From assembly GCA_963762565.1 (NCBI GenBank), contig CAVXLD010000003.1:352001-416000 (forward strand): a stretch of 64,000 nucleotides of DNA, given 5' to 3'. The position numbers were made by a program, and so were the translations under genes. Shown piece after piece: positions 21,060 through 36,796 of the stretch. Origin of the DNA: an uncultured Verrucomicrobiae bacterium (GTDB lineage: Bacteria > Verrucomicrobiota > Verrucomicrobiia > Chthoniobacterales > JAFAMB01). How positions within the stretch are numbered: the first letter of the stretch is position 1; each line of letters opens with the position of its first letter. The notes below the pieces were generated by a model that had not been told where the DNA came from, ran no database searches, and saw only the letters and a program-made list of their open reading frames with translations.

Positions 21060-22622
21060 CTAAAGTTCATCTAACTGTTTCCCCGTCCAGAGGGTGCGCG
21101 TGATCAAAGGAGAGGTTCGGTAACGGTCTTCGCCGTAATAGACCGAGAGGTTATGGAGAACGTCTCGGATGCGTCGAAGCCCGATCTTGCGACTCCATTC
21201 AAACGGGCCGGCCGGGTAACGTGTTCCCTTCCGCATCGCCAAATCGATATCGCCACAGGTTGCGACTTTTTGCAGAGCCGTGTCTGCTGCTTCATTTATC
21301 AGCATGGATACCGTTCGCATGACGGCTAAACCCGGCACGTCATCCAAAGTAACGACCTCGTAACCGGCTGCTTGAAATAGAGCCACCGCTGATTGGTATG
21401 CCTTTTCGCTACACCGAGGCGCAGGCGACAGTGCTATAGCTCCGGCGCTCTCATAGTCAAAAGCTAGATCAACCAGCACGGTGTTAGGTTGGTTCTCTTC
21501 GAACGCGATTTGGGCGGCGGTCCTCCCGTCGGTCAGGCGCACGTTTGCTTGATCGACCATCGCCACTAAATCGCCCTCTGCTCTTGCGATACGTCCGGCG
21601 CCAGGGAACGCCTTTCGCAGACGAGTTAACAATCCGTTCGTGAGCGAATCACCGGCCGACAGCCAGACCTCATGGGGAACCGAGTGTCGCATTTCCAGCG
21701 GAGGTTCACTCTTAGTCGAGTCCTCACCGTAGTCATAAAAACCGCGTCCGGTCTTACGTCCATAGAATCCCCCCTCCACCAGCTCTTTCTGATAAACCGA
21801 AGGCATGAACTTCGGGTTCTGATAGAAACCATCAAATACCGACTGGGTAACCGCAAAGTTAACATCGTTGCCGATCAGATCCATCAACTCAAACGGTCCC
21901 ATAGGAAACCGTCCGGCTTCACGCATGACATAATCGATCGTGACGGGATCGCTCCCTTCTGTCACCAGACGGAGAGCTTCGGCATAAAACGGGCGAGCGA
22001 CACGGTTAACAATGAACCCCGGTGTAGAATTGGCTTGGACTGGGATTTTGTCCCATGTCTTAACCGTCTCCAAAACAATCGACAGAGTAGTTTCGTCTGT
22101 CGATAGTCCGGAAACGACCTCCACGAGTTCCATGATCTGCGCCGGGTTAAAGAAATGCATCCCGATCACTCGATTTGGATAGACAAGTCCGGCTGCCAGT
22201 TTGGTAATCGAAAACGAGGAGGTATTGCTGGCGATAATCGACTCCTTTGAAAGGATATTCTCCAAGTCCTGGATAAGTCGTTTCTTGGTGTCGAGGTCTT
22301 CAACGACGGCCTCGATTACTAACCCGGCATCACCAAGGCCAAAAAGACTGGTGACGGGCGCGATCCGTCGCTCGATCTCTTCGGCCGCGCGGGCAGTCAA
22401 TTTACCTTTCCCCACAGACTTGTTCAGACTACGATTAACCTTTTCCAGCGCCCGAGTAACAGCCTCTGGAACCGAGTCGAAGATTTTGACTGGATGCCCC
22501 CCGCAAGCAGCTACCTCGGCGATTCCTGCGCCCATGGTCCCTGCACCGATGATCCCGACCACCGTATCCGGCGGGATCGGCTGTTTGGCAGCGAATTTAG
22601 GTCTGGGGAGTGTTGTCAGCAT
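21060..22622 (-). CDS. paaH: 3-hydroxyadipyl-CoA dehydrogenase
   Basis: GAGTMGAGIA, IASNTSS, GMHFFNPA, PGFIVNRVARPFYAEA, MGPFELMDLIG; duplicated C-terminal domain. Confidence 0.93.
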   Translation of the reverse strand: MLTTLPRPKFAAKQPIPPDTVVGIIGAGTMGAGIAEVAACGGHPVKIFDSVPEAVTRALEKVNRSLNKSVGKGKLTARAAEEIERRIAPVTSLFGLGDAGLVIEAVVEDLDTKKRLIQDLENILSKESIIASNTSSFSITKLAAGLVYPNRVIGMHFFNPAQIMELVEVVSGLSTDETTLSIVLETVKTWDKIPVQANSTPGFIVNRVARPFYAEALRLVTEGSDPVTIDYVMREAGRFPMGPFELMDLIGNDVNFAVTQSVFDGFYQNPKFMPSVYQKELVEGGFYGRKTGRGFYDYGEDSTKSEPPLEMRHSVPHEVWLSAGDSLTNGLLTRLRKAFPGAGRIARAEGDLVAMVDQANVRLTDGRTAAQIAFEENQPNTVLVDLAFDYESAGAIALSPAPRCSEKAYQSAVALFQAAGYEVVTLDDVPGLAVMRTVSMLINEAADTALQKVATCGDIDLAMRKGTRYPAGPFEWSRKIGLRRIRDVLHNLSVYYGEDRYRTSPLITRTLWTGKQLDEL

Positions 22623-22729
22623 GCAAGGGTATCAGGGGCTCGTCCTCGTTCTCGTCGTCGTCCTCGTCCTCGAGAAAGCGGGAACGGAGTAATGGAGCGG
22701 CGGAGTAATGGAGTGTTGTAGTATTGCTT

Positions 22730-23515
22730 TCACGTCCCCGTAAACTTCGGAGGCCTCTTCTCTAAAAATGCCGTAACCCCTTCCCGAAAATCATTACTGC
22801 GCCCGAGCTCCCGCATATAGTCGCGTTCCAGATCGAGCTGTTTGTCCAGCAACAAACCAATCGAACTATTAATTGCTGCTTTTGTATACGCGAGCCCCTT
22901 GGTTGGCGCTATGGCCAGGGTATTAAGCAATTCTTCGATGCTGGCCTTGAACGCTTCGTCCTCGACGCAGCGCCAGATCAAACCCCAAGCCGCGGCTTGC
23001 TCGGCGGAAAGCCGTTCACCTAGCAGAGCGAGCCCCAGTGCTCTCGCAGTGCCAACCAATCTAGGCAAAAAGAAGGTTCCACCGGTGTCAGGAATTAGAC
23101 CGAGTTTAGCAAATGACTGGATAAAGCTGGCAGACTTAGTTGCGATCACGAGATCACAAGCCAGGGCCAAGCTTACTCCGGCTCCGGCAGCAACTCCGTT
23201 AACCCCGGCGACCACAGGTAAAGGAAGAGCGCGGAGTGTACGCACCAACGGCGCATAGTATTTCTCAATACTATCGCCTAAATCGATCGCGCCTTCTCCG
23301 GTCTTGGTGTTTCTGTCTGCGAGATCCTGCCCGGCGCAGAAAGCGCGTCCAGCTCCAGTCATCAATAGCACGCGTACGCGCTGCTCCTTCACCTGCTCAA
23401 GCGCTTCGCGCACTTCCAGATGCATCGCTTCGTTGAAGCTGTTGAGCTTGTCGGGACGGTTAAGCGTCAACCGAGCGATGTCGTCCTTAAGATCGAGAAG
23501 AATAGTTTGAAACAT
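22730..23515 (-). CDS. paaG: 2-(1,2-epoxy-1,2-dihydrophenyl)acetyl-CoA isomerase
   Basis: LNRPDKLNSF, FCAGQDL, VNGVAAGAG, LIPDTGGT; crotonase fold. Confidence 0.93.
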   Translation of the reverse strand: MFQTILLDLKDDIARLTLNRPDKLNSFNEAMHLEVREALEQVKEQRVRVLLMTGAGRAFCAGQDLADRNTKTGEGAIDLGDSIEKYYAPLVRTLRALPLPVVAGVNGVAAGAGVSLALACDLVIATKSASFIQSFAKLGLIPDTGGTFFLPRLVGTARALGLALLGERLSAEQAAAWGLIWRCVEDEAFKASIEELLNTLAIAPTKGLAYTKAAINSSIGLLLDKQLDLERDYMRELGRSNDFREGVTAFLEKRPPKFTGT

Positions 23516-23641
23516 AGGAGGTTCAGGAGTTCAGCATGGGGCGGTTAAAGAAATGGCGAGACAGAAAAAGTTGCGGTGACCTGAATACGAGATCAGCGCG
23601 GTGGTCTCCTGAACTCCTGAACTTCTGCAACTCCTGAACTC

Positions 23642-24427
23642 CTATTTGTTTTTGAATCTCGGTTCACGTTTCTCTAAAAAGGCTGCCATGCCTTCTTTCT
23701 GATCTTCGAGTGCAAAGGTTGCTTGGAAGCTGCGTCGTTCTACCCTTAGCCCTTCCGTCAGCGGTAGCTCATAGGCGGCGTTAACCGCGTCTTTGATCAT
23801 CATCACACTTGGCCGAGAAAGAGATGCGATTTTAGTTGCGGTACGGATGGCTTCCTCTTTCAGATCAGCGAGTGGAACCACTCGACTGACCAATCCGGCG
23901 CGTTCGGCCTCGTTGGCATCGATGAATCGACCGGTCAGACACATCTCCATGGCTTTCGATTTCCCGATGAGTCTGGTAAGTCTTTGGGTGCCGCCGGCCC
24001 CGGGCATCGCCCCGATCATGACCTCGGGTTGACCGAACTTAGCGTTGTCAGCGGCAATGATAAAATCGCATGCCATCGCTAGCTCGCACCCTCCACCAAG
24101 GGCATACCCGGAAACAGCAGCGATGATCGGTTTTCGAATTGCGGAGACCCGGGTCCAGGCGCCGCCGCGACCTTCGGGAAAGTCCTGTAGAAGGAGAGCG
24201 GCAAAGGTCTGATCTTGCATCTCCTGGATGTCCGCTCCGGCAGCGAAGGCTTTATCATTTCCCATTAGAATCATTGCCCCTATCGCATCGTCCGCCTCCC
24301 ATTCTTGCAGTGCGTGCACGACCTCACGCATCAACGCCGTAGAAAGTGCGTTGCGCCTCTCGGGCCGATTTAAGATCAGAATCCCAACCGGGCCACGAGT
24401 CTCGCAGAGAATGTTTTGATAGCTCAT
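23642..24427 (-). CDS. paaF: 2,3-dehydroadipyl-CoA hydratase (enoyl-CoA hydratase)
   Basis: AFAAGADIQEM, GYALGGGCELAMACD, FGQPE, PGAGGTQRL. Confidence 0.9.
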   Translation of the reverse strand: MSYQNILCETRGPVGILILNRPERRNALSTALMREVVHALQEWEADDAIGAMILMGNDKAFAAGADIQEMQDQTFAALLLQDFPEGRGGAWTRVSAIRKPIIAAVSGYALGGGCELAMACDFIIAADNAKFGQPEVMIGAMPGAGGTQRLTRLIGKSKAMEMCLTGRFIDANEAERAGLVSRVVPLADLKEEAIRTATKIASLSRPSVMMIKDAVNAAYELPLTEGLRVERRSFQATFALEDQKEGMAAFLEKREPRFKNK

Positions 24428-25056
24428 AGTTGGCGGAAGCCAGAAGCAAAAATGTCATGGAGCTCCTTTGCGGGTGGGTCATATCTGGGGAGCTGAAACC
24501 GGCGACGATTTGGTTCCGGTTGGGTCAGGGGTTCGCAGGCTCGCATAGTGGCTAGCGAACGTTTGGTCAACATTTGATAAACCCCGGTCCCTGTTGTTTT
24601 GGTGGCGACCTCTTCTTCGGTTAGTTCACGCACAAGTCTGCCTGGGATCCCGGCAACCAACATCCGGGGAGGAACGAACATGCCGGCCTTCACAAAAGAT
24701 AGTGCGGCCACCAGCGAGGATTCACCGATCTCCACTTCATCCATCACCACGGCGTTCATGCCGATCATGGCGTTTTTACCGATTCTACACCCATGCAGAA
24801 TTGCACCGTGACCGATATGTCCGCCTGCCTCGACCGTTACTTCCATATTCGGATAGGTATGCACCACGCAACCATCTTGAAGATTGCTGCCTGCCTCTAT
24901 CACGATCCTTCCCATGTCGCCCCGAAGGGATGCGCCCGGGCCGATGTAACAGCCGGGGCCGATAATAACGTCGCCAATGAGAACCGCGGTTGGATGAACG
25001 AACGCTGCCGGATCCACTACCGGGGTGATATCGTCGATGGAATAGATGTTAGACAT
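24424..25056 (-). CDS. paaY: PaaY hexapeptide-repeat (gamma-carbonic-anhydrase-like) protein
   Basis: PVVDPAAFVHPTAVLIGDV, SLRGD, GHIGHGAILHGC. Confidence 0.9.
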   Translation of the reverse strand: MSNIYSIDDITPVVDPAAFVHPTAVLIGDVIIGPGCYIGPGASLRGDMGRIVIEAGSNLQDGCVVHTYPNMEVTVEAGGHIGHGAILHGCRIGKNAMIGMNAVVMDEVEIGESSLVAALSFVKAGMFVPPRMLVAGIPGRLVRELTEEEVATKTTGTGVYQMLTKRSLATMRACEPLTQPEPNRRRFQLPRYDPPAKELHDIFASGFRQL

Positions 25057-25211
25057 AGGATGGAGGATGAAGGTAGGGGAGGCGGATTGGTAGCGAGGCT
25101 CCCGATTGCACGGAGTAGAGATCCCGGAATGACCCAGGAGGTTGAGGTCCGAAATGCGCCGAGCCGTTGGGGAGATGGAATAATGGAGGATTGGAGTAAT
25201 GGAGGATTTGG

Positions 25212-26876
25212 TTAGACTGGAATTCTGGTTTCGATGATGCGGAAGCGGTTCGCGACAAAGGCGCTATCGGTTAGGCTGGCGTTAGCGGCTGGATTGGCTC
25301 CAGTGCCGTGATAGTCGCTGAAGGCGGCAGATTGGTTTACGTAGATTCCGCCGGTGAGGTTGCACGACAAACTGACGCCGGCCTCGGCCGCGATTTCGCC
25401 GGCCGCGTGTAAGAGAGATTCCTTGGTTGAGTAGACCGCGAACGTCAGGGAGCCGCAGCGAAGAGAAGTCATGCGTGACAGCTCTAGTGCTTGTTCGGCA
25501 GTGTCCACGGGAATAACGAACACAATCGGGCCGAAACATTCTTGTAAGTAATAGTCGTGGTCGGATGCCGTTAATTGAACGAGCAGGGGGGTCCGCACGC
25601 AGGCGTCGGGAAATTGCGGATGGCTAATGCTTTGGGTATCGGAAATAATTTTGCCTAGTTTGCGAGCGCCTTCCAAGCGATCCAGGGTTGCTTCACTCTG
25701 GATTGCTCCGAGAATTTCGACTGCCCGGGCGGGGTCACCAAGGAGTTTAGCAAGACTATCGGCGAGGCCTTGGACAACTTGGTCAAAAGAGAGATGTCCA
25801 TCAGGCGTCTCCACTCCGTCCTTGGGAATGTAAAGATTTTGAGGGGCAGTGCACATTTGACCGGAATAGAGCGAGATCGAGAAAGCCAGGTTCTTGACCA
25901 TTCCGGCAAAATCATTTGTGGAATCAATTACAACCTGATTTACACCGGCTTTCTCGGTATAAACCGTGGCCTGTCTGGCTTCTTTCTCCAGCCATTCTCC
26001 GTTCCTGGTGCTTCCGGTGAAATCGATAATTTTAATTTCCGGACGCAAAGCGAGCTTTTTGGGGGTGTCGTCATTTGGATCATGGGCGACGAGGGTGACG
26101 ATGTTCGGATCGAAACCGGCTTCCGTCAGGACTTGGCGCGCAGTTTCGACAGTTAAGGCCAAGGGAAGAATCGCACCGGGATGCGGTTTTACGATTACTG
26201 CGTTTCCTGTCGCCAAGTTAGCAAAGAAACCTGGGTACGCATTCCAGGTCGGGAAGGTAGAACAACCGATGACCAAGCCGATACCACGGGGGACGATTTT
26301 AAACTGTTTGTTCAGTTTTAAGGGCTCGTTCTTGCCTTGCGGTTTTTCCCAGTACGCGGTTTTGGGGACATGATTAAGTTCGGTCCATGCATAAGCCACT
26401 GCCTCGAGACCTCTATCTTGCGCATGGGGTCCTCCGGCTTGGAAAGCCATCATGAAGCCTTGGCCGGTGGTGTGCATGACTGAGTAAGCCATCTCGAAGC
26501 TTCGCCGGTTCAGGCGCTGGAGGATTTCAAGGCAAACCCCAACCCAGGTTTCCGGGTCTGCCGCGCGCCAAGGTTTTTGCGCGGCGAGCATTGTCTTCAA
26601 GAGCGGGTCGAGGTCAACTTTGGGATAAGTGATTTCCAAAGGGAAACCGTAGGGCGACCGCTCCGAGCCAGTTTGACCAACGGTCGCCGGAAGGTTGAGA
26701 GGATACGGATGATGGAGCCTGGATTCGAACGCTGCTTTCCCGGATTCGTTAGCAGTCTCACCATAAATCTTGCCGCTCGGAATCTCTGGGAACGCGCTCC
26801 AATAAGTCCGCTTCTCAATGGCTTGCACAGCGTCCTTCAGGAGCTGTTGATGAGTAGAAAAGAAAGAGTTAGACAT
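25212..26876 (-). CDS. paaN: Phenylacetic acid degradation aldehyde dehydrogenase PaaN
   Basis: HTTGQGFMMAFQAGGPHAQDRGLEA, GCSTFPTWN, SLYSGQMCTAPQN, VNQSAAFSDYHGTGANPAANA. Confidence 0.93.
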   Translation of the reverse strand: MSNSFFSTHQQLLKDAVQAIEKRTYWSAFPEIPSGKIYGETANESGKAAFESRLHHPYPLNLPATVGQTGSERSPYGFPLEITYPKVDLDPLLKTMLAAQKPWRAADPETWVGVCLEILQRLNRRSFEMAYSVMHTTGQGFMMAFQAGGPHAQDRGLEAVAYAWTELNHVPKTAYWEKPQGKNEPLKLNKQFKIVPRGIGLVIGCSTFPTWNAYPGFFANLATGNAVIVKPHPGAILPLALTVETARQVLTEAGFDPNIVTLVAHDPNDDTPKKLALRPEIKIIDFTGSTRNGEWLEKEARQATVYTEKAGVNQVVIDSTNDFAGMVKNLAFSISLYSGQMCTAPQNLYIPKDGVETPDGHLSFDQVVQGLADSLAKLLGDPARAVEILGAIQSEATLDRLEGARKLGKIISDTQSISHPQFPDACVRTPLLVQLTASDHDYYLQECFGPIVFVIPVDTAEQALELSRMTSLRCGSLTFAVYSTKESLLHAAGEIAAEAGVSLSCNLTGGIYVNQSAAFSDYHGTGANPAANASLTDSAFVANRFRIIETRIPV

Positions 26877-26890
26877 AATTGTTACTCTGG

Positions 26891-28000
26891 TTAGTGGATT
26901 TTGTCGAAATCGACTACGAGCTCGTTAGTTCTAGGATAGCTTTGACAGGTCAGAATAAATCCGCGATCGATTTCGTAGTCTTCTAACCCGTAGTGAGCAT
27001 GCATCTCCACTTGCCCGGTGCGGAGATGGGCCCGGCAACTTGCGCAAACACCCCCTTGGCAACCATAACGCAATTCCAGTCCGTGGCGTAACCCTGCCTT
27101 TAGCACTGATTCTGTCTCTCGCGGCATGGTAAATTGATGCTCGATGCCATCTAAAATGATGGTGACGGCACACTGCTGTTCTGGCGCTGGGACCTGATCA
27201 ATGCCGACGCCGTTCTTGGGGGCGGCAAATAGTTCTGTCCTGATCTTGGCGTCCGGTAACCCTTCGGATCGCAAAGCGGCCTTGACTTCTTCGCGCATCG
27301 AGGCAGGGCCACAGATGAAAGCGTTATCGATATTATTCCCAGGGACCCAGCGTTTCAGTAAATCGCGGGACTTCGAGTAGTCAATTCGGCCATATAGCAG
27401 ATCGCTCTCTTGTCTTTCGCGAGTTAGTATGTGGACCAGAGTAAGCCGGTTAACAAAGCGGTCCTTAAGGTCACCTAGTTCATTCCGCAGCATGACGGAG
27501 CCGGTAGATCGGTTACCATAAAAGAGAGTAAATTCGCTCTTCGGTTCGGCGATCAACGTTGACTTGATAATAGAAAATACTGGAGTGATACCGCTGCCGG
27601 CGGCAAAGGCGACGTAGTTGTGGCGCTCGGCGGCTGATAGCGGCACCCCGAAGCGGCCGGTCGGCGGCATGATCTCGATCATAGTGCCGGGCTTTAATTC
27701 CGTAAATGCCCAGTTCGAAAACAGGCCATTGGGCGCCCGTTTGATCGCAATTCGCAGAGCGTCGTCTTGAACTGCGGCGCAGATGGAGTAAGGACGGCGC
27801 ACCTCAGTTCCATTGATGATCGCTCGTAGGATCAGGTGTTGCCCGGGACCAAAGGAGAACTTTGGTCTTAGCACGTCGGGAACCGCAAAAGTCACGAGAA
27901 GGGAGTCGGCTGTATCCAAGCGAACGTCGGCAACTTCCAACGGGAAAAAAACGGTGGCTGGAGAGACCGTGGTCGCGACCTTCGTCGAGTTCAGTGACAT
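26891..28000 (-). CDS. paaE: Phenylacetyl-CoA epoxidase reductase subunit
   Basis: RRPYSIC, AAGSGITP, FYGNR, FICGP, C-terminal 2Fe-2S motif CQGGVCASC...LTCQ. Start ATG 28000 overlaps the paaD end. Confidence 0.93.
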   Translation of the reverse strand: MSLNSTKVATTVSPATVFFPLEVADVRLDTADSLLVTFAVPDVLRPKFSFGPGQHLILRAIINGTEVRRPYSICAAVQDDALRIAIKRAPNGLFSNWAFTELKPGTMIEIMPPTGRFGVPLSAAERHNYVAFAAGSGITPVFSIIKSTLIAEPKSEFTLFYGNRSTGSVMLRNELGDLKDRFVNRLTLVHILTRERQESDLLYGRIDYSKSRDLLKRWVPGNNIDNAFICGPASMREEVKAALRSEGLPDAKIRTELFAAPKNGVGIDQVPAPEQQCAVTIILDGIEHQFTMPRETESVLKAGLRHGLELRYGCQGGVCASCRAHLRTGQVEMHAHYGLEDYEIDRGFILTCQSYPRTNELVVDFDKIH

Positions 28001-28692
28001 TTGAAGTAATCGAATGGTTCCAGGCAAGAGTTACAGATGTAAAAGGCTTTGCAGGGAGTCGAACCGAACTGGCTGACGACTCGCGTGTCAGATGAGCCGC
28101 AACGCGGACAACAAATGGCGTCATCCTGTGCACCAGGGGCTTCGTGCTCGTGCTTCCGACTTCGCCAACCTCCTGTTGTGGAGCGCGCCTCGCTTGCGAG
28201 GCCGACTTCGAGCGGTTGGCAACATTGAGCTCGGGCTTCGTCGGACAAGCTGTGCTCGACTTCTTGCGGACGGAGTGATGGAGTAGTGGAGTGTTGGAGT
28301 GTTGCGCCTTCACCGGATTGCCGCTGGAAGCTGCGGGAGAGACGCGCGCAAGGTCCAGGCGGTGCAATACCGTATTCTAGCAATCGAGTCCTTCCGCGTT
28401 TGGTCATCCAGTCCGTTGTCCAAGCCGGCGAAAGCTGCGTTTCTATGCGGACTCGGTTTATGCCTCGCTGTTGCAGCTCCCGTTGAATGTCGTTTTTGAT
28501 GACGGCTATAGCCGGACAACCGGAGTAAGTCGGGGTGACGTTGACAACCAAGGTCGAGCTGCCGTTTTCCTCGATCCATTTAACCTTGCGCACAATCCCT
28601 AAATCAATGACTGACAATACGGGAATTTCGGGGTCGTTGACTGAGTCTAACCAAGTCCAAATTTCTTCTAGCGATGGTAAGCTCGTCAGCAT
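27991..28692 (-). CDS. paaD: Phenylacetyl-CoA epoxidase subunit PaaD with an 82-aa repeat-derived linker
   Basis: DPEIPVLSVIDLGIVR, TPTYSGCPA, LSPAWTTDW, CPRCGS, FGSTPCKA, C..CLEPFDYFKCH. Confidence 0.93.
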   Translation of the reverse strand: MLTSLPSLEEIWTWLDSVNDPEIPVLSVIDLGIVRKVKWIEENGSSTLVVNVTPTYSGCPAIAVIKNDIQRELQQRGINRVRIETQLSPAWTTDWMTKRGRTRLLEYGIAPPGPCARLSRSFQRQSGEGATLQHSTTPSLRPQEVEHSLSDEARAQCCQPLEVGLASEARSTTGGWRSRKHEHEAPGAQDDAICCPRCGSSDTRVVSQFGSTPCKAFYICNSCLEPFDYFKCH

Positions 28693-28697
28693 GGCAG

Positions 28698-29472
28698 TTA
28701 CCATTTAGCTTGGGGATAGGCACGCTGCAGAAACTGCATCTCAGCTAACAAATAGCCCAGCGCCTCGGTGTGAATGCCGTACTTGCCGCCGGTGTGCATC
28801 CAATCCGATTCAGGGATTTGCAGGGTAGCCTCGGTGAGGACGGCTCTCACGCTAGACAGCCAATCCGTAGCCAATTTTGTTCAAGTCCAGGCCGATTCGC
28901 TCCCCCCACATGGCCTCATCGACCGAGTCAGGTTTATATAATTCACCCGTGTAACACCAAAGATCGTCTATCGCTTTTTGGATCCTGCGGTTGCTTTCGT
29001 CGGTTCCGTCTCCCAAGCGAATCACCCACCCGCTGCTGTGGCGTAGATGATAGGTGACTTCTTTTAGACTCTTTTCGCTGATCTCTCGAATCCGTTGATC
29101 GGTTGAGTCCAGCAAATCAGTTAGCGCTAAATGGTGCCAGGTATCAAAGTAGAACTGACGAGCCATGGTGTAGGCAAAATCCTGGTTGGGCTGTTCCAGC
29201 AAAAGACAGTTCCTGAAGTCGCCCGCATCTCGAAGGAAGGCAAGTATGTCTGGTGTCCGCTGGCGGCCTTCCAATTCAGCGGCGTATTCCAGCCAGTTCT
29301 GCGCCTGACCGTTGAGATCCAGCGCGATGTTAGTTAAAGCCATATCCTCTTCCAGCTCCGGCCCATGTCCGCACCATTCACCGAGGCGCTGGCTCAAGAT
29401 GAGACAGTTGTCGGCCAGCCGGAGGACGAACTCGAGGCGGGGGTTCTGAGCGCTGGGAGGTGGAGGCATCAT
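28698..29472 (-). pseudogene. paaC: Phenylacetyl-CoA epoxidase subunit PaaC, +1 frameshift in an A4 run (28875-28878); pseudogene or sequencing error
   Basis: LSQRLGEWCGHGPELEEDMAL, KEVTYH. Removing one A restores ...NKLATDWLSSVRAVLTEATLQIP...GGKYGIHTEALGYLLAEMQFLQRAYPQAKW*. Confidence 0.9.
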
Positions 29473-29478
29473 TGGAAG

Positions 29479-29600
29479 AATAGATCGCAAATCGCAAATC
29501 GCAAATAGCAAATTAGTGGACAGCGCCGGGTGCGGAGTTGTCGTCTCTTTTCTCATGCTCGGTGAGCCAATTTGCTATCTGCTATCTGCTATTTGCTATT
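29479..29600. repeat. Inverted pair of ATAGCAA/ATCGCAA heptamer runs (family J) around a ~60-bp unique loop
   Basis: atcgcaaatcgcaaatcgcaaatagcaaat ... atttgctatctgctatctgctatttgctatt, between paaB and paaC. Confidence 0.85.
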
Positions 29601-29609
29601 TCGTAAGCC

Positions 29610-29891
29610 TTAAAGATGCTTGACCTCCGGCGGCACGGTGTAAAACGTCGGATGGCGATAGATCTTGTTCTTGGCCGGGTCAAAAAAGGCGTCTTTATCG
29701 GCGGGATCGCTCGCGTACAGGTCTGCGGATCGGACCACCCAGATGCTGATTCCTTCGTTCCGCCGGGCGTAAACGTCGCGAGCATTTTCGATTGCCATCT
29801 TAGCGTCGGCTGCGTGCAGACTGCCCACGTGTTTATGAGAGAGTCCATTCTGGCTCCGAACGAAAATTTCCCACAGTGGCCAATCATTCAT
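29610..29891 (-). CDS. paaB: Phenylacetyl-CoA epoxidase subunit PaaB
   Basis: MNDWPLWEIFVRS..GLSHKHVGSLHAAD..MAIENARDVYARRNEG.SIWVV, YRHPTFY. Confidence 0.95.
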   Translation of the reverse strand: MNDWPLWEIFVRSQNGLSHKHVGSLHAADAKMAIENARDVYARRNEGISIWVVRSADLYASDPADKDAFFDPAKNKIYRHPTFYTVPPEVKHL

Positions 29892-30019
29892 AGGCAGGGA
29901 GGGCGCGCAGCCTGTCCGACATAGCCTGCGGCCCTGCGGTTGTCTTTTCTTTTGCTCGGCGAAGTCGGATCCCCGCGCGCCGCGGGATAGCCAATAGCCG
30001 AGGAGGAAGCAGGGGAATA

Positions 30020-30143
30020 ACAGATAGCAGATAGCAAATAGCAAATGGACAAGCCCAAGTGTGCTCGAAACACTGTCGACCATTGAAAATGGTAGTGAAC
30101 TTGTTGCGGAACCATTTGCTAATTTGCTATCTGCTATTTGCTA
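30020..30143. repeat. Inverted pair of family J heptamer runs; the right arm supplies the paaA stop codon
   Basis: cagatagcagatagcaaatagcaaat ... atttgctaatttgctatctgctatttgctat. Confidence 0.85.
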
Positions 30144-31104
30144 TGGCCGAGCGCTTGCGCGCATAGGCATTGGCTGCTTCCCGGACCCAGGCGCCATCGG
30201 CATGAGCTTGGCGGCGGGTTCGTAGACGTTGGACATTGCAGGGACCATTTCCCTTGATGACACTATAAAATTCTGCCCAGTCGATCTCCCCGAAATCGTA
30301 GTGTCCGGTCTCCTCGTTCCATTTTAAATCCGGATCAGGAACAGTCAGATCGAGGTACTCGGCCTGAGGCACGGTCTGGTCGATGAATCGTTGCCGAAGC
30401 TGATCGTTAGTCAGCAATTTGATTTTCCAACGGACCGACTCGGCGGTATGCGAGGATTGGGCGTCAGGCGGGCCAAACATCATGAGCGAAGGCCACCACC
30501 AACGGTTCAGCGCGTCTTGGGCCATACTTCGTTGAGCCCCGGTCCCTCGGGCCATGACCGTCATTATCTCGAAACCCTGGCGTTGATGAAAACTTTCTTC
30601 CTTACAGATCCGAATCATCGCCCTCGCGTAGGGGCCGTATGAACAGCGGCACAACGGGATCTGATTCATGATAGCCGCGCCGTCCACTAACCAACCAATG
30701 GCGCCGATATCTGCCCAGGTAAGGGTAGGATAGTTGAAGATGCTGGAATACTTCGCTTTCCCCACCAACAGGTCATTGACCAGTTGTTCCCGGGTGATGC
30801 CTAAAGTCTCGGCCGCACCGTAAAGATAAAGACCGTGACCGGCTTCGTCCTGGACTTTGGCTAACAAGATGGCCTTACGCTGCAAGCTAGGAGCACGCGT
30901 GATCCAGTTAGCCTCCGGCAACTGACCCACGATTTCGGAATGCGCGTGTTGCGAGATCTGCCGGATTAAAGTTTTGCGATAGCCTTCCGGCATCCAATCC
31001 CGAGCTTCGATAGTGTCGCCCGCATCGATGCGCGCCTGGAACGCGGCTAATTCAGGGGATGATTCGTCGCCGATTGCGTCGACTTTGACCATCTGTGCGT
31101 ACAT
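30127..31104 (-). CDS. paaA: Phenylacetyl-CoA epoxidase catalytic subunit PaaA
   Basis: [56 protein letters not shown]. Confidence 0.96.
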
Positions 31105-31259
31105 AAGGGGGATCAATGGTAAGGCCCACCGCAACGAAACGAATCTTGCTTCAGAGACACAGAGTTCACAGAGAGAAGGGAGGGACGGTTCCTCTGCGTT
31201 CGCTGTACCTCGGCTTCAAAAATCGAAGCGTTGCGGCTCTGTCAGCGATTGTGACGTTA

Positions 31260-31298
31260 TGATACAAGAATTGATTAGTCAAAGAGAATAGTGTATCA
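31260..31298. promoter_or_regulatory. Putative PaaX operator TGATAC-N27-GTATCA
   Basis: TGATAC (31260-31265) and GTATCA (31293-31298) are 27 nt apart in the paaA/paaX divergent region. This matches the geometry of the E. coli PaaX site TGATTC-N27-GAATCA. Confidence 0.8.
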
Positions 31299-31315
31299 AA
31301 TAGATCGTTCTGACT

Positions 31316-32302
31316 GTGGCCCGTACCCCCGACCTGCAACGCCGAATTTCTACCATTGAGCTCTGGATTCGCCGGACTCTGGCGATGGATCCTCCCCGGG
31401 CAAAATCTCTGGTGGTTTCAATCTTCGGAGACGCGATCGCACCGCGGGGAGGGGCGATTCGGTTAAAGAACTTGATCGAATTGCTCGGTCCTTTTGACGT
31501 CAACGAACGCTCGGTCCGAACCAGTGTATTCCGCTTGGTCAAGGAGGATTGGTTGGAGACGACTCGGAATGGCCGAGAAAGTTCCTATCGCTTGACTCGT
31601 ACCGGCTTTCGAAGACTCGAACACGCCTATGAAAAGGTGTATCGACGCCCAGCGGCTGCCTGGGACGGAACCTGGACATTCATTCTGATTCCAAATGAAC
31701 ATCTGACCGTTCCGCGCCGGCTCAAGGTGAAGCAGGAATTGGAATGGGAGGGCGTCCGGCAACTGACCCCGCAGCTGTTCGCGCATCCCACGGTCCGCGT
31801 TGAAGCGTTGAGCGAGATATTCGATCGCTCAGAAGTAAGAGGAAAGGTCATCAGTTTTAGCGGCGCCACAACGGATCAATTGGGCATGTGCGTGATCCGC
31901 GAGCTAGTGAATGGAACCTGGAACCTGAGACAGGTTGCCGGGGCATACAAAAGATTCGAGCGCGACTTTGCCAAGTTGAAATCGGTCTTAGCTCGTGGCG
32001 CGCGGTTGTCCGGTTGGGAGTGGCTCGCGATCCGGGTGCTGCTCATCCACTCGTTCCGGCGAATCGTTTTACACGATCCGCTATTGCCGAATGAATTGTT
32101 GCCCAATCCCTGGATTGGAGATGACGCGTATCGGTTGGCCGGAGAAATTTATCGGATCTCGTTGCCGGAGTCGGAGAGGTATCTTTGCGAGGGGTTGGGA
32201 CCCGCGACCGAGGAAGCGGTACGTACGATGGGGCGGCGATTTAATACCGCGCCACCGGCCTGGAGGGGAGCCGCTTTACAAGCTGGCAGCTCTATCGGTT
32301 AG
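31316..32302 (+). CDS. paaX: Phenylacetate catabolism repressor PaaX
   Basis: SLVVSIFGDAIAPRGG, NERSVRTSVFRL, WDGTW, RVLLIHSFRRIVLHDPLLPNELLP..W.G. Confidence 0.95.
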   Translation: MARTPDLQRRISTIELWIRRTLAMDPPRAKSLVVSIFGDAIAPRGGAIRLKNLIELLGPFDVNERSVRTSVFRLVKEDWLETTRNGRESSYRLTRTGFRRLEHAYEKVYRRPAAAWDGTWTFILIPNEHLTVPRRLKVKQELEWEGVRQLTPQLFAHPTVRVEALSEIFDRSEVRGKVISFSGATTDQLGMCVIRELVNGTWNLRQVAGAYKRFERDFAKLKSVLARGARLSGWEWLAIRVLLIHSFRRIVLHDPLLPNELLPNPWIGDDAYRLAGEIYRISLPESERYLCEGLGPATEEAVRTMGRRFNTAPPAWRGAALQAGSSIG

Positions 32303-33580: not shown

Positions 33581-36500
33581 ATGTGGATCGTTAAACTCGC
33601 TCTCACTCGGCCGTATACCTTTATCGTGTTCGCACTTCTGATCTTTGTGTTGAGCCCGTTGATCATCCTGCGGACGCCCACGGACATTTTCCCGAACATC
33701 GATATTCCGGTGATCTCGGTCGCGTGGACCTATACTGGCCTGAACCCGGAAGATATCGAGGGGCGGTTGACCACGCCTTACGAGAAAGTGCTCACTACGC
33801 TGGTTGATAATATCGAGCACATAGAATCCACGAGCTATAACGGTGCCTCCGTCATCAAAATCTTTCTGCAACCGCATGCGAGCTTGGATCGAGCGAACTC
33901 TCAGGTGGTCAGCGCTTCTCAATTTGCGCTGCGATTGCTGCCATCGAGTATTCAGCCGCCTGAGATTATTAATTTCAGCGCTTCTAGCGTACCGATTCTT
34001 CAACTTGGACTCTCCGGTCAGGGTCTCTCCGAACAACAATTGAATGACCTGGCACTGAATTTTGTCCGGACGCAAATGATCACGGTTCCGGGAGCGGTGA
34101 TTCCTCTTCCCTACGGCGGCAAGCAGCGTCAGGTGATGATCAATCTGGATCACAACCTGATGCAGGCGAGAAACATTTCGCCGACGGATGTTCTCAGCGC
34201 AGTGAATGCCCAAAGCCTGGTGCTCCCGTCTGGCACCGTGAAGCTGGGTCAGAGCGAATTGGATATCCGGGCCAACACGTATCCTCGGACCGTGGCCGAA
34301 CTGAACAATCTACCGATCAAGCAGGTGGGCGATACCACGGTTTATCTGCGAGACGTCGCTACGGCTAGCGACGGGTTTGCGCTACAGACGAACGTGGTTC
34401 GCCAGGATGGCCGACGTGGTGTGCTGATGAGTATCCTCAAAGCGGGAAACGCATCGACTCTCAGTGTGGTGAGCGGCGTAAAAACTCTACTCCCGCGCGT
34501 GGCTACCATTGTTCCGCCGGCGCTGAAAATGACGCCTTTGGCAGATCAAAGCATTTTCGTACAGAGTGCGGTGAACGGGGTTATCCGGGAGGCGGTGATT
34601 GCGGCAGCGTTAACCGGGCTCATGATCCTTTTATTCCTAGGGAGTTGGCGGAGCACCCTGATCATTGCTGTCTCTATACCGCTATCGATTTTGACCTCAA
34701 TAATGATCATCAGCCTTCTTGGCGAAACGATCAATATCATGACGCTGGGAGGCTTGGCCCTGGCGGTTGGGATACTAGTCGATGATGCTACGGTCACGAT
34801 CGAGAATATCGAGCGGGTACTAAGGCAGGGACGTTCCCTTCACGATGGCATTTTAGAAGGCGCAGCCCAGATTGCCGTACCGGCCTTAGTCTCTACCCTC
34901 TGTATCTGTATCGTTTTTCTTCCCATGTTTCTCTTGGACGGGGTCGCGCGTTATCTTTTCGTCCCCCTGGCAGAAGCCGTGGTGTTTGCCATGCTGGCCT
35001 CGTACGTCCTCTCGCGAACGTTAGTTCCTACGTTAGCGATGTATCTATTGAAGGCCAAACATCATGAGCCGAATCCGAAAAACATCTTTGCCCGTCTGCA
35101 ACACGGGTTCGAAAAAGGGTTCGAGTTAGTTCGAAACAGCTATAGCGGATTGCTCACCAGTTTGGTGGCTCATCGCAAGCTATTTATCCCGGCGTTTCTT
35201 GGGGCCTGTCTATGCGGGGTTTTCCTGGTGCCGTGGCTAGGCCAGGACTTTTTTCCTGACACCGATAGTGGTCAATTCATTCTGCATGTTCGCGCTAGGA
35301 CTGGGACCCGAATTGAAGAGACCGCGCGTTTGTTCGACTTGGTTGAGGACGTTATCCGGCAAAACATTCCAGCCAAAGAGATGGACAACATCCTGGATAA
35401 CATCGGTTTGCCCTATAGCCCGTACAATACCATGCACTCAACCTCGGGGGTGTTAGGCGCAAACGATGGCGACGTATTGGTATCGCTCCGCCAGAATCAT
35501 AGTCCGGTGGCTGATTATGTTCGGGACCTTCGGGTTCTGCTGCCGCAGCGGTTTCCCGGCGTCACCTTCTACTTTTTGCCGGCTGATATTGTGACGCAGA
35601 TTCTTGATTTTGGTCTTCCGTCTCCGATCGATGTCCAGGTTGAAGGCAATGATGTGGTGGCAAGCCAACAGATCGCTGAGAAGCTAATGGCCAAGATGCG
35701 GCAGGTTCCGGGCTTGGTTGATCTGAGGGTACAGCAGCCACTGGACTATCCGACGTTGGATGTCGCGGTTGACCGGGTAAAAGCGCTCCAAGCTGGCTAC
35801 ACAGAGCAGAATGTTGCTAACAGCGCATTGAACGCTCTGAGCGGGAGTTTTCAGATAACTCCGTTGTTCTTTATGAACTGGAAGAACGGAGTCAATTACA
35901 ACTTAGTGGCTCAGACCCCTCAATATCGATTCCAGTCAATAAACGACCTCCTCAATATTCCGCTCCCGGCGGCCAGCGGAAGTAACACCGAGATATTGGG
36001 AGACATCGCCTCCGTCAGCCGTGGCCACGAGATGGGATTAATCACCCACTACAACATCCGCCGGGTCATTGATATTTACGGGGCGGTCCAGGACCGAGAT
36101 TTGGGTGCAGTGAGCCGGGACGTGCAAAAGATCGTCGATAATAGCCGGTCACAACTTCCGCGCGGTACGTTCCTAACGATCCGCGGCCAAGTGCGAACCA
36201 TGGACAGCTCGTATACCGGCCTTTTGACAGGCTTGGGGTTAGCCGTGGTGCTGGTTTACATGTTGATCGTCATTAACTTTCAATCGTGGCTGGATCCATT
36301 CATTATCATTACCGCGTTACCGGCTGCCCTGACTGGTATCGTTGTTTTTCTGTTTTTGACGCATACCACGCTCAGCGTCCCGGCTCTAATGGGAGCGTTG
36401 ATGTGTATGGGAATCGCGACTGCCAACAGCATCTTAGTGGTTTCTTTTGCTAAAGAGCGTTTACGGGAACACGGAGATTCGGTACGCGCGGCTGTCGAAG

Positions 36501-36796
36501 CGGGAGCAACTCGGTTCCGTCCGGTGGTAATGACCGCCCTGGCGATGATCATCGGCATGATTCCGATGGCTCTTGGACTAGGGGACGGCGGTGAACAAAA
36601 CGCGCCGTTAGGCCGGGCTGTGATCGGGGGGTTACTGGCTGCGACGGTCGCTACCTTGGTCTTCGTTCCTTCGGTTTTCAGTATGCTGCATTATCGCGCC
36701 TCGAGGGTCGGCCTCGCAAGCGAGGCGCGCTCCACGTACGCCTCGAGGGTCGACGCCAGTGCAGCCGGGCAATCGGACCCGGTAACTAACAGCTAA
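33581..36796 (+). CDS. RND efflux transporter permease subunit (AcrB/AcrD/AcrF superfamily)
   Basis: MWIVKLALTRPYTF, GILVDDATVTIENI, RFRPVVMTALAMIIGMIPMALG.G.GGEQNAPLGRAVIGG. Confidence 0.95.
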   Translation: MWIVKLALTRPYTFIVFALLIFVLSPLIILRTPTDIFPNIDIPVISVAWTYTGLNPEDIEGRLTTPYEKVLTTLVDNIEHIESTSYNGASVIKIFLQPHASLDRANSQVVSASQFALRLLPSSIQPPEIINFSASSVPILQLGLSGQGLSEQQLNDLALNFVRTQMITVPGAVIPLPYGGKQRQVMINLDHNLMQARNISPTDVLSAVNAQSLVLPSGTVKLGQSELDIRANTYPRTVAELNNLPIKQVGDTTVYLRDVATASDGFALQTNVVRQDGRRGVLMSILKAGNASTLSVVSGVKTLLPRVATIVPPALKMTPLADQSIFVQSAVNGVIREAVIAAALTGLMILLFLGSWRSTLIIAVSIPLSILTSIMIISLLGETINIMTLGGLALAVGILVDDATVTIENIERVLRQGRSLHDGILEGAAQIAVPALVSTLCICIVFLPMFLLDGVARYLFVPLAEAVVFAMLASYVLSRTLVPTLAMYLLKAKHHEPNPKNIFARLQHGFEKGFELVRNSYSGLLTSLVAHRKLFIPAFLGACLCGVFLVPWLGQDFFPDTDSGQFILHVRARTGTRIEETARLFDLVEDVIRQNIPAKEMDNILDNIGLPYSPYNTMHSTSGVLGANDGDVLVSLRQNHSPVADYVRDLRVLLPQRFPGVTFYFLPADIVTQILDFGLPSPIDVQVEGNDVVASQQIAEKLMAKMRQVPGLVDLRVQQPLDYPTLDVAVDRVKALQAGYTEQNVANSALNALSGSFQITPLFFMNWKNGVNYNLVAQTPQYRFQSINDLLNIPLPAASGSNTEILGDIASVSRGHEMGLITHYNIRRVIDIYGAVQDRDLGAVSRDVQKIVDNSRSQLPRGTFLTIRGQVRTMDSSYTGLLTGLGLAVVLVYMLIVINFQSWLDPFIIITALPAALTGIVVFLFLTHTTLSVPALMGALMCMGIATANSILVVSFAKERLREHGDSVRAAVEAGATRFRPVVMTALAMIIGMIPMALGLGDGGEQNAPLGRAVIGGLLAATVATLVFVPSVFSMLHYRASRVGLASEARSTYASRVDASAAGQSDPVTNS

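Follow-up and report, generated by a model that had tools for sequence, protein, structure and literature searches.

A nested composite of small repeats in the PaaD linker of a Chthoniobacterales bacterium and its empty, half-filled and filled alleles

How does a conserved protein come to hold, between its two domains, a long peptide encoded by repeats that are otherwise dispersed between genes, and should such a peptide be regarded as new protein sequence or as DNA that the gene tolerates? This question is raised by paaD in a stretch of 64,000 nucleotides (the window) from the genome of an uncultured bacterium of the order Chthoniobacterales (contig CAVXLD010000003.1). The ORF of 237 aa at 27991..28704 on the reverse strand was identified by profile and domain matches: it scores 176.9 bits against the NCBIfam PaaD profile TIGR02159 (cut-off 108.15), contains the Pfam domains FeS_assembly_P (PF01883; residues 13-78) and PaaD zinc ribbon (PF23451; residues 187-235), and lies within paaABCDE, so that curated score, both domains and position place it in PaaD. 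The paa cluster (21060..32302) consists of paaX on the forward strand and, on the reverse strand, paaABCDE, an aldehyde dehydrogenase gene and paaY-, paaF-, paaG- and paaH-like genes; PaaA, PaaB and PaaC exceed their cut-offs and PaaE falls narrowly below its own. PaaD has been described as dispensable in vitro and essential in vivo (PMC9493321). A first-pass annotation of the window proposed that the linker of this PaaD had been built in frame from three stacked, unrelated intergenic repeat families (A, E and F), in parallel to the Rickettsia palindromic elements (RPEs), and that such creation of protein sequence might be ongoing. The labels A, E and F are retained from it, and K, B and “module” are introduced here.

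The linker between IAPP and CPRC indeed measures 82 aa (28111..28356, reverse strand), with no stop and an intact frame, and all three proposed motifs with their peptides are present; the Cys-rich C-terminus is likewise preserved, its Cys residues being invariant when 65 sequences are aligned. The usual length, put at 15-30 aa, is in fact shorter: the median is 12 aa in the 117 of 120 top homologues in which both anchors were found, and 19 distant metagenome loci have 5-19 aa. Eight of the 117 linkers reach at least 40 aa and all eight contain repeat-like peptides, as judged by eye. Source names found among the homologues are Chthoniobacterales or Verrucomicrobia, and the runs are soil metagenomes, with no RNA run among 20. 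The insert does not occupy the whole linker, as had been supposed; it comprises 28135..28356 (reverse strand; 222 bp, 74 codons), a boundary read from the sequence and from an empty allele in run X5 and 163-aa proteins. It is bounded by a 3-bp direct repeat (28135-28137 and 28357-28359), and, of the two hallmarks of a MITE (terminal inverted repeats and a target-site duplication), no terminal inverted repeat was seen around the 222 bp. A stable hairpin formed by the whole insert was rejected, since it folds no better than shuffles (z 0.91 for RNA and -0.92 for DNA, not significant).

Read on the forward strand, the insert begins with the left half of repeat E, an array of 6-bp units (28141..28154), which is whole in an allele of run X8. 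E is interrupted by a 97-bp module (28155..28251) that is absent in the X8 and P0003 alleles. The outer arms of the module (28155-28166 and 28234-28249) are from a 30-bp hairpin element, K, and its inner stem (28164-28170 / 28214-28220) encloses repeat A, a 28-bp REP-like hairpin that starts with GTGG (28178..28205). The right end of E follows (28252..28259) and, 12 bp further, repeat F, an array of 9-bp units (28272..28301). The remaining 28302..28356, missing from the empty allele, is probably a degenerate tail of the composite; these last ~55 bp have a loose likeness to the tails of other copies and gave no significant blastn match, and ~170 of the 222 bp clearly match other copies. Repeat A is thus not a free family member in the linker but sits inside the module that splits E, which the first-pass annotation had overlooked. 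The insert represents a single copy of a nested composite, E[K[A]]-F, and not three separate arrivals.

That unrelated families were stacked in paaD itself, as first suggested, is not supported; the same stack is a genome-wide composite. Motif searches gave 264 matches for A and 91 for F, against none for either in the base-shuffled genome, and 39 against 2 for the PaaD variant of E; both K arms flank 62 of the 264 A matches. Many of the 83 blastn matches of at least 60 nt run from E through A to F, so the pieces of the insert travel together. The spacing between E and F is 12 bp in 68 of 74 measured junctions. The module occurs at 68 loci and is preceded by E in 65 of them; the full stack, module then F, is found at 35 loci (that of paaD counted by pattern), and E+F without the module at 49. 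Copies of K (30 bp) are also found free, inside A and inside K itself, and further small inserts of 24 bp and ~36 bp lie in the repeats. High-copy 15-mers cover 238 kb of the 6.1-Mb genome. Among 40 genomes searched, the full composite is present in four of the five of the same genus, and other genera have only pieces, the 35 other relatives matching short pieces of it. High-copy repeats also occupy intergenic gaps of the paa operon itself (22690-22730, 29510-29610 and 29940-30120), as seen from an E-type peptide in a shadow ORF and from depth peaks and joints.

The claim of an ongoing process is supported, in that the insert is polymorphic among near-identical strains. PaaD proteins whose cores are 95-99% identical have linkers of 8 aa (P0006, P0129 and P0131, proteins of 163 aa), 36 aa (P0005), 52 aa (P0003, P0004 and P0125), 64 aa (P0128), 82 aa (the window allele, P0001 and P0121), 84 aa (P0124) and 93 aa (P0002), a protein series that is biased to intact frames. 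The evidence for alleles consists of assembled contigs only, plus separately assembled proteins of 237-239 aa. The empty allele is found in a 5456-bp contig of X5, which skips 28125-28356 (232 bp) with 10 letters between, a net change of -222 bp; the half-filled allele is found in X8, where a contig skips the module (net -90 bp) and E is whole, and both forms are in frame. Other relatives form separate series at the same linker, with 12 aa, 19 aa with A, and 29 or 32 aa with further elements in A. A second PaaD loop varies in relatives in its own series of 16, 26-30, 47-50 and 58 aa: at residues ~45-50 (L009, L010, L037-L053) a beta-hairpin loop of 16 aa is extended to 26-58 aa by the repeats found on either side of GxxExxY genes, and nesting continues inside them. 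Repeat-like peptides are also seen at the N-terminus of PaaD in two relatives of other genera (L007, L008).

In what order were these alleles made? Two pairs of proteins indicate insertion in place: P0124 equals P0003/P0125 plus the module, with identical private flanks and linkers otherwise alike, and P0128 equals P0004 plus a 12-aa element in F. The comparison of P0124 with P0003 is consistent with insertion of the module without target duplication. Remnants of E+F are also seen in a clade whose cores are 85-89% identical, which makes the first insertion old, and persistence for so long would be compatible with some function. On the other hand, the empty P0131 groups with the window allele in the tree (100/75), and at least one empty allele therefore looks like a later loss or a recombinant. 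The tree was made from 68 rows and 140 columns, after 24 anchor-less proteins were dropped and 7 duplicate cores removed, and its support is thin; with so few columns and alleles that likely recombine, the order of events is not fixed by it. From comparison of the alleles the composite likely reached paaD in about two steps, E+F arriving first. The opposite reading, that the full stack was inserted once, ready-made, and that all shorter alleles are its deletion products, draws on the presence of that stack at 35 loci, on the grouping of P0131, on the empty P0006, which has the same linker end as the filled P0003, and on P0008 of a more distant clade, which keeps a peptide like a module remnant. 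It would require exact removal of the module several times over, while E is whole and clean in the 52-aa alleles, just as it is in the 49 free E+F copies, and P0007 and P0010 have E+F without the module; we regard a single insertion as unlikely. Stepwise arrival of one common nested composite, kept because it is in frame at a floppy joint, is in our judgement the probable explanation of the linker.

The joint itself appears permissive. In an AlphaFold2 model built from 65 sequences the two domains have pLDDT mostly of 87-97 and 75-92, and residues 119-193 fall below 50 with no secondary structure, so the insert peptide is predicted to be a disordered, floppy joint between two domains; the alignment-based fold was used because that from the single sequence was poor (pLDDT 41.9). 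A search for a solved PaaD structure returned none, only four DUF59-type matches. NCBIfam has a haloarchaeal family of its own for each of the two domains, and their existence as separate proteins fits a tolerant joint between them in PaaD. The frame, by comparison, seems to be under selection. The module is not frame-locked, as 22 of 51 genomic copies would preserve the frame at paaD without bringing in a stop, and yet among 23 close metagenome loci all 22 measurable linkers and all 23 second loops are multiples of three, which supports selection on the frame even though protein-based searches favour intact genes. Whichever frame is taken, 43-49 of the 49 E+F copies are free of stops on the paaD coding strand, so the openness of E+F is compositional. 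Among the differences listed, those in the core lean synonymous (synonymous/nonsynonymous 10/3 in X1, 9/5 in X8 and 7/3 in X5), with two of the five nonsynonymous ones in X8 lying in the old linker and the X1 signal possibly brought in by a donor allele. In the X8 insert, all six of the changed codons counted are nonsynonymous, a small indel pair being among them; the two 1-bp indels in its tail (28321/28324) lie too near each other to be called a compensated frameshift.

Several other explanations have to be weighed against these data. Assembly error or a pseudogene in a decaying operon comes to mind since high-copy repeats break short-read contigs inside A, and since paaC is frameshifted in the present assembly. 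No single contig across the whole insert was found in the runs examined, which yielded junction contigs only; nevertheless, two X1 contigs (26800-28204, with one difference, and 28196-29599) bridge both insert junctions, the right junction is bridged also in X2, X7 and X8, and the 237-aa form recurs in two other assemblies, with a 239-aa variant in a third. The frameshift is due to one surplus base at 28869..28872 (reverse strand), and because this base is missing from all contigs covering the site, in four of four runs (X1, X2, X5 and X7), it must be either an error of this assembly or a peculiarity of one strain. The operon is intact in the read contigs and the remaining paa genes have full domains, so the decay that the first-pass annotation had kept in mind is not seen, and we consider artefact or pseudogene hardly credible. 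The contigs of X1 and X2 differ from the window at ~30 places within 28606-28873 and hardly elsewhere, a pattern that probably reflects recombination over the paaC-paaD junction.

The insert might alternatively be removed or bypassed at the level of RNA or translation, by excision like that of an intervening sequence (IVS) or by ribosome bypass, leaving a short protein; E and F do come from cassettes of the protein family of 23S rRNA intervening sequences. Yet the mRNA strand does not fold unusually, the insert is not closed by a terminal stem, and all alleles seen keep an open frame, which fewer than half of the modules would provide, so that this seems very improbable and the insert is presumably translated. 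Recruitment of the repeat-derived peptide for a function (a binding site, metal ligands or regulation) would accord with the Cys and His residues in it, with the persistence of E+F across the clade at 85-89% core identity, and with two further genes that read E+F as paaD does, in the same frame: a KsgA-NUDIX fusion (L094, G000:C4:18167-19681) and an M20 peptidase (L081, G000:C7:236183-237541). It fits poorly with a linker that varies from 8 to 93 aa between near-identical cores and is lost again, with predicted disorder, with the six nonsynonymous changes of X8 and with the compositional openness of E+F, and it too is very improbable. There is no evidence for a new function of the insert, which we suppose to be near neutral, and “creation of protein sequence” is accurate in the literal sense only. 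Tolerated selfish DNA that comes and goes, rather than new protein function, is the likely nature of the linker.

Where, then, do the repeats come from? One gene of the four-helix-bundle family PF05635 lies between perfect inverted E arms of 36 bp (L101:268-799), and another between inverted F arms of 160 nt (L100:166-1168). In 41 genomes the E-type gene has 11 matches (one of them partial and one at a contig end), with E upstream in nine and F flanking none, and the F-type gene has seven, with F upstream in all seven, inverted F downstream in six and E in none; several of these cassette loci are orthologous and not independent. Outside the genus the F-type gene is found only in G012 and G014, the same two in which the insert has the most matches (17 and 16). 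E and F are thus the inverted arms of two PF05635 gene cassettes, each paired with its own subfamily, and the link is one of association. We know of no catalytic role for PF05635. Other PF05635 and GxxExxY genes of the present genome (G000) each have their own inverted arrays of short units. The peptide that occupies the second PaaD loop of relatives is that of the repeat flanking GxxExxY genes here. A genome search found no partner gene for A, K or the module, and what lay between inverted pairs of A, K, B, EF or module proved to be either ordinary genes or non-coding frames. A RAYT mobiliser was rejected: none of 12 matches to Y1 (PF01797) has A, E, F or K within 400-500 bp, in a genome that is 94% complete. 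GIY-YIG and DUF559 genes were rejected as partners as well, having no linked repeats. A short GIY-YIG ORF lies between duplicated tRNA-like sequences (G000:C1:180071-180283).

These observations can be arranged in a scenario in which an E+F element arose from cassette arms without a gene, spread, and came to lie in the paaD linker; a hairpin module carrying A then entered E, and more small modules were inserted into E and F in turn. Products in frame would have survived at the predicted floppy joint, and arrivals out of frame were presumably removed by selection; short alleles may have been restored by deletion between short direct repeats or by recombination. As a best guess, the gene-less arms and hairpins were moved in trans by the cassette proteins; homology-guided copying between E copies could be an alternative. 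A broader reading, in which PF05635/GxxExxY minigene cassettes are the autonomous partners of a kit of tiny repeats, and the gene-less arms of these cassettes nest in one another and, repeatedly and inside one species, add or remove 10-90 residues in protein loops, is a tentative one. If it were true, soil Chthoniobacterales would be a natural system in which repeat-born peptides are made and purged at population speed, and the alleles of paaD would be a series at hand for testing it. In any case the specific match of E and of F to a PF05635 subfamily each is a testable lead on the role of an unexplained family.

Small dispersed repeats (SDR) of Nostoc were reportedly treated by Elhai in 2008. 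Very small modules of this kind are inserted precisely into another repeat, such as SDR5 into HIP1 (PMC4390886). The module likewise goes precisely into E, and K into A or K; with E around the module at 65 of 68 loci and 49 empty E+F copies, the present case is SDR-like, whereas sequences and phylum are different. We know of no link between SDRs and four-helix-bundle cassettes. Mosaic clusters of short repeats copied as units are familiar from BIME/REPIN with RAYT (PMC3184786), but the elements here are nested rather than side by side, consist of 6- and 9-bp arrays plus hairpins, and have PF05635 instead of RAYT as cognate genes. The 23S rRNA intervening sequences share this protein family, although the cassettes here lie between protein genes, not in rRNA, and paaD holds gene-less arms only. 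Closer at hand, the same phylum offers the intragenic GTAG REPs of Opitutus terrae, and REP dimers or clusters inside ORFs add 43-82 aa in Thauera and R. conorii (Di Nocera 2013, PMC3733652), so the “different lineage” put forward as a novelty was already on record. uvrA is struck in both cases, REPs are inserted within other palindromes there too, and A begins with GTGG like some O. terrae REPs; by sequence, the GTAG/GTGG tetranucleotide with a short stem-loop is found in A and not in E, F or K. Classification of A/E/F/K as RAYT-linked GTAG REPs or REPINs was rejected, as no RAYT here is flanked by them, in difference to the REPs of that study, and neither multi-family nesting nor an allelic series came up in the portions of it consulted. 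Its supplement, with 70 occurrences of “terrae”, gave no match for ASEAR or HST of the A and F peptides. A literature search returned no paper on the A/E/F/K families or on repeat-armed PF05635/GxxExxY cassettes, overlap with the SDR work of 2008 and Ogata 2002 being possible. In-frame selfish repeats were already known, usually as fixed end points; new here are empty, half-filled, filled and over-filled paaD alleles in near-identical strains, so that gain and loss can be followed step by step and the alleles tested one by one. The case is real and well supported, and its value lies in the allelic series and in the association of E and F with particular cassettes.

The proposed parallel with RPEs (Ogata 2000, 2002) holds in the way the elements work: dispersed repeats lie in frame in unrelated genes and add peptide without breaking them. 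RPEs are single families of ~150 bp with nearly half of their copies in ORFs (PMC10969869). The paaD insert was rejected as a true RPE, for which one palindromic family of ~100-150 bp with many of its copies in ORFs would be expected, since it is a nested mosaic of at least four small elements with insignificant fold z-scores, a few percent of the copies are in genes, and empty and filled alleles coexist. A heuristic gene caller placed 17 of 245 copies of A, 8 of 314 of E and 2 of 132 of F within genes, in a genome of which 60% is called gene interior; a codon-model filter for read-through inserts returned 23 distinct ORFs, and since both caller and filter missed paaD, these intragenic counts are lower bounds. 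All 23 have Pfam domains, among them IspG, UvrA, MutS, CobN, CitG, a U32 peptidase and an RND pump, and one, GltX with an 18-bp match, is likely a chance hit, so that ~22 other genes carry in-frame inserts. Six inserts lie within the best-matching domain stretch and two between stretches of one domain, and most of the remainder are in inter-domain linkers. In a heuristic, informal frame check, 19 blocks were read through and 27 met a shift or stop, again as lower bounds; 23 of these 27 are gene ends at most 32 nt away, and two of the other four were scanned and are separate genes. Such repeats yield recurring false “motifs” in annotated proteins. Within the window, the RND pump (ORF 33581-36796) has an in-frame copy of family A in its C-terminal tail. 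A double-length UvrA (L083, G000:C10:11417-17230) has two A inserts, an echo of the REP-interrupted uvrA of O. terrae, and a tandem A array after an ADP-ribosylglycohydrolase domain (L079, G000:C3:903965-904270) is read through in an ORF of 798 aa.
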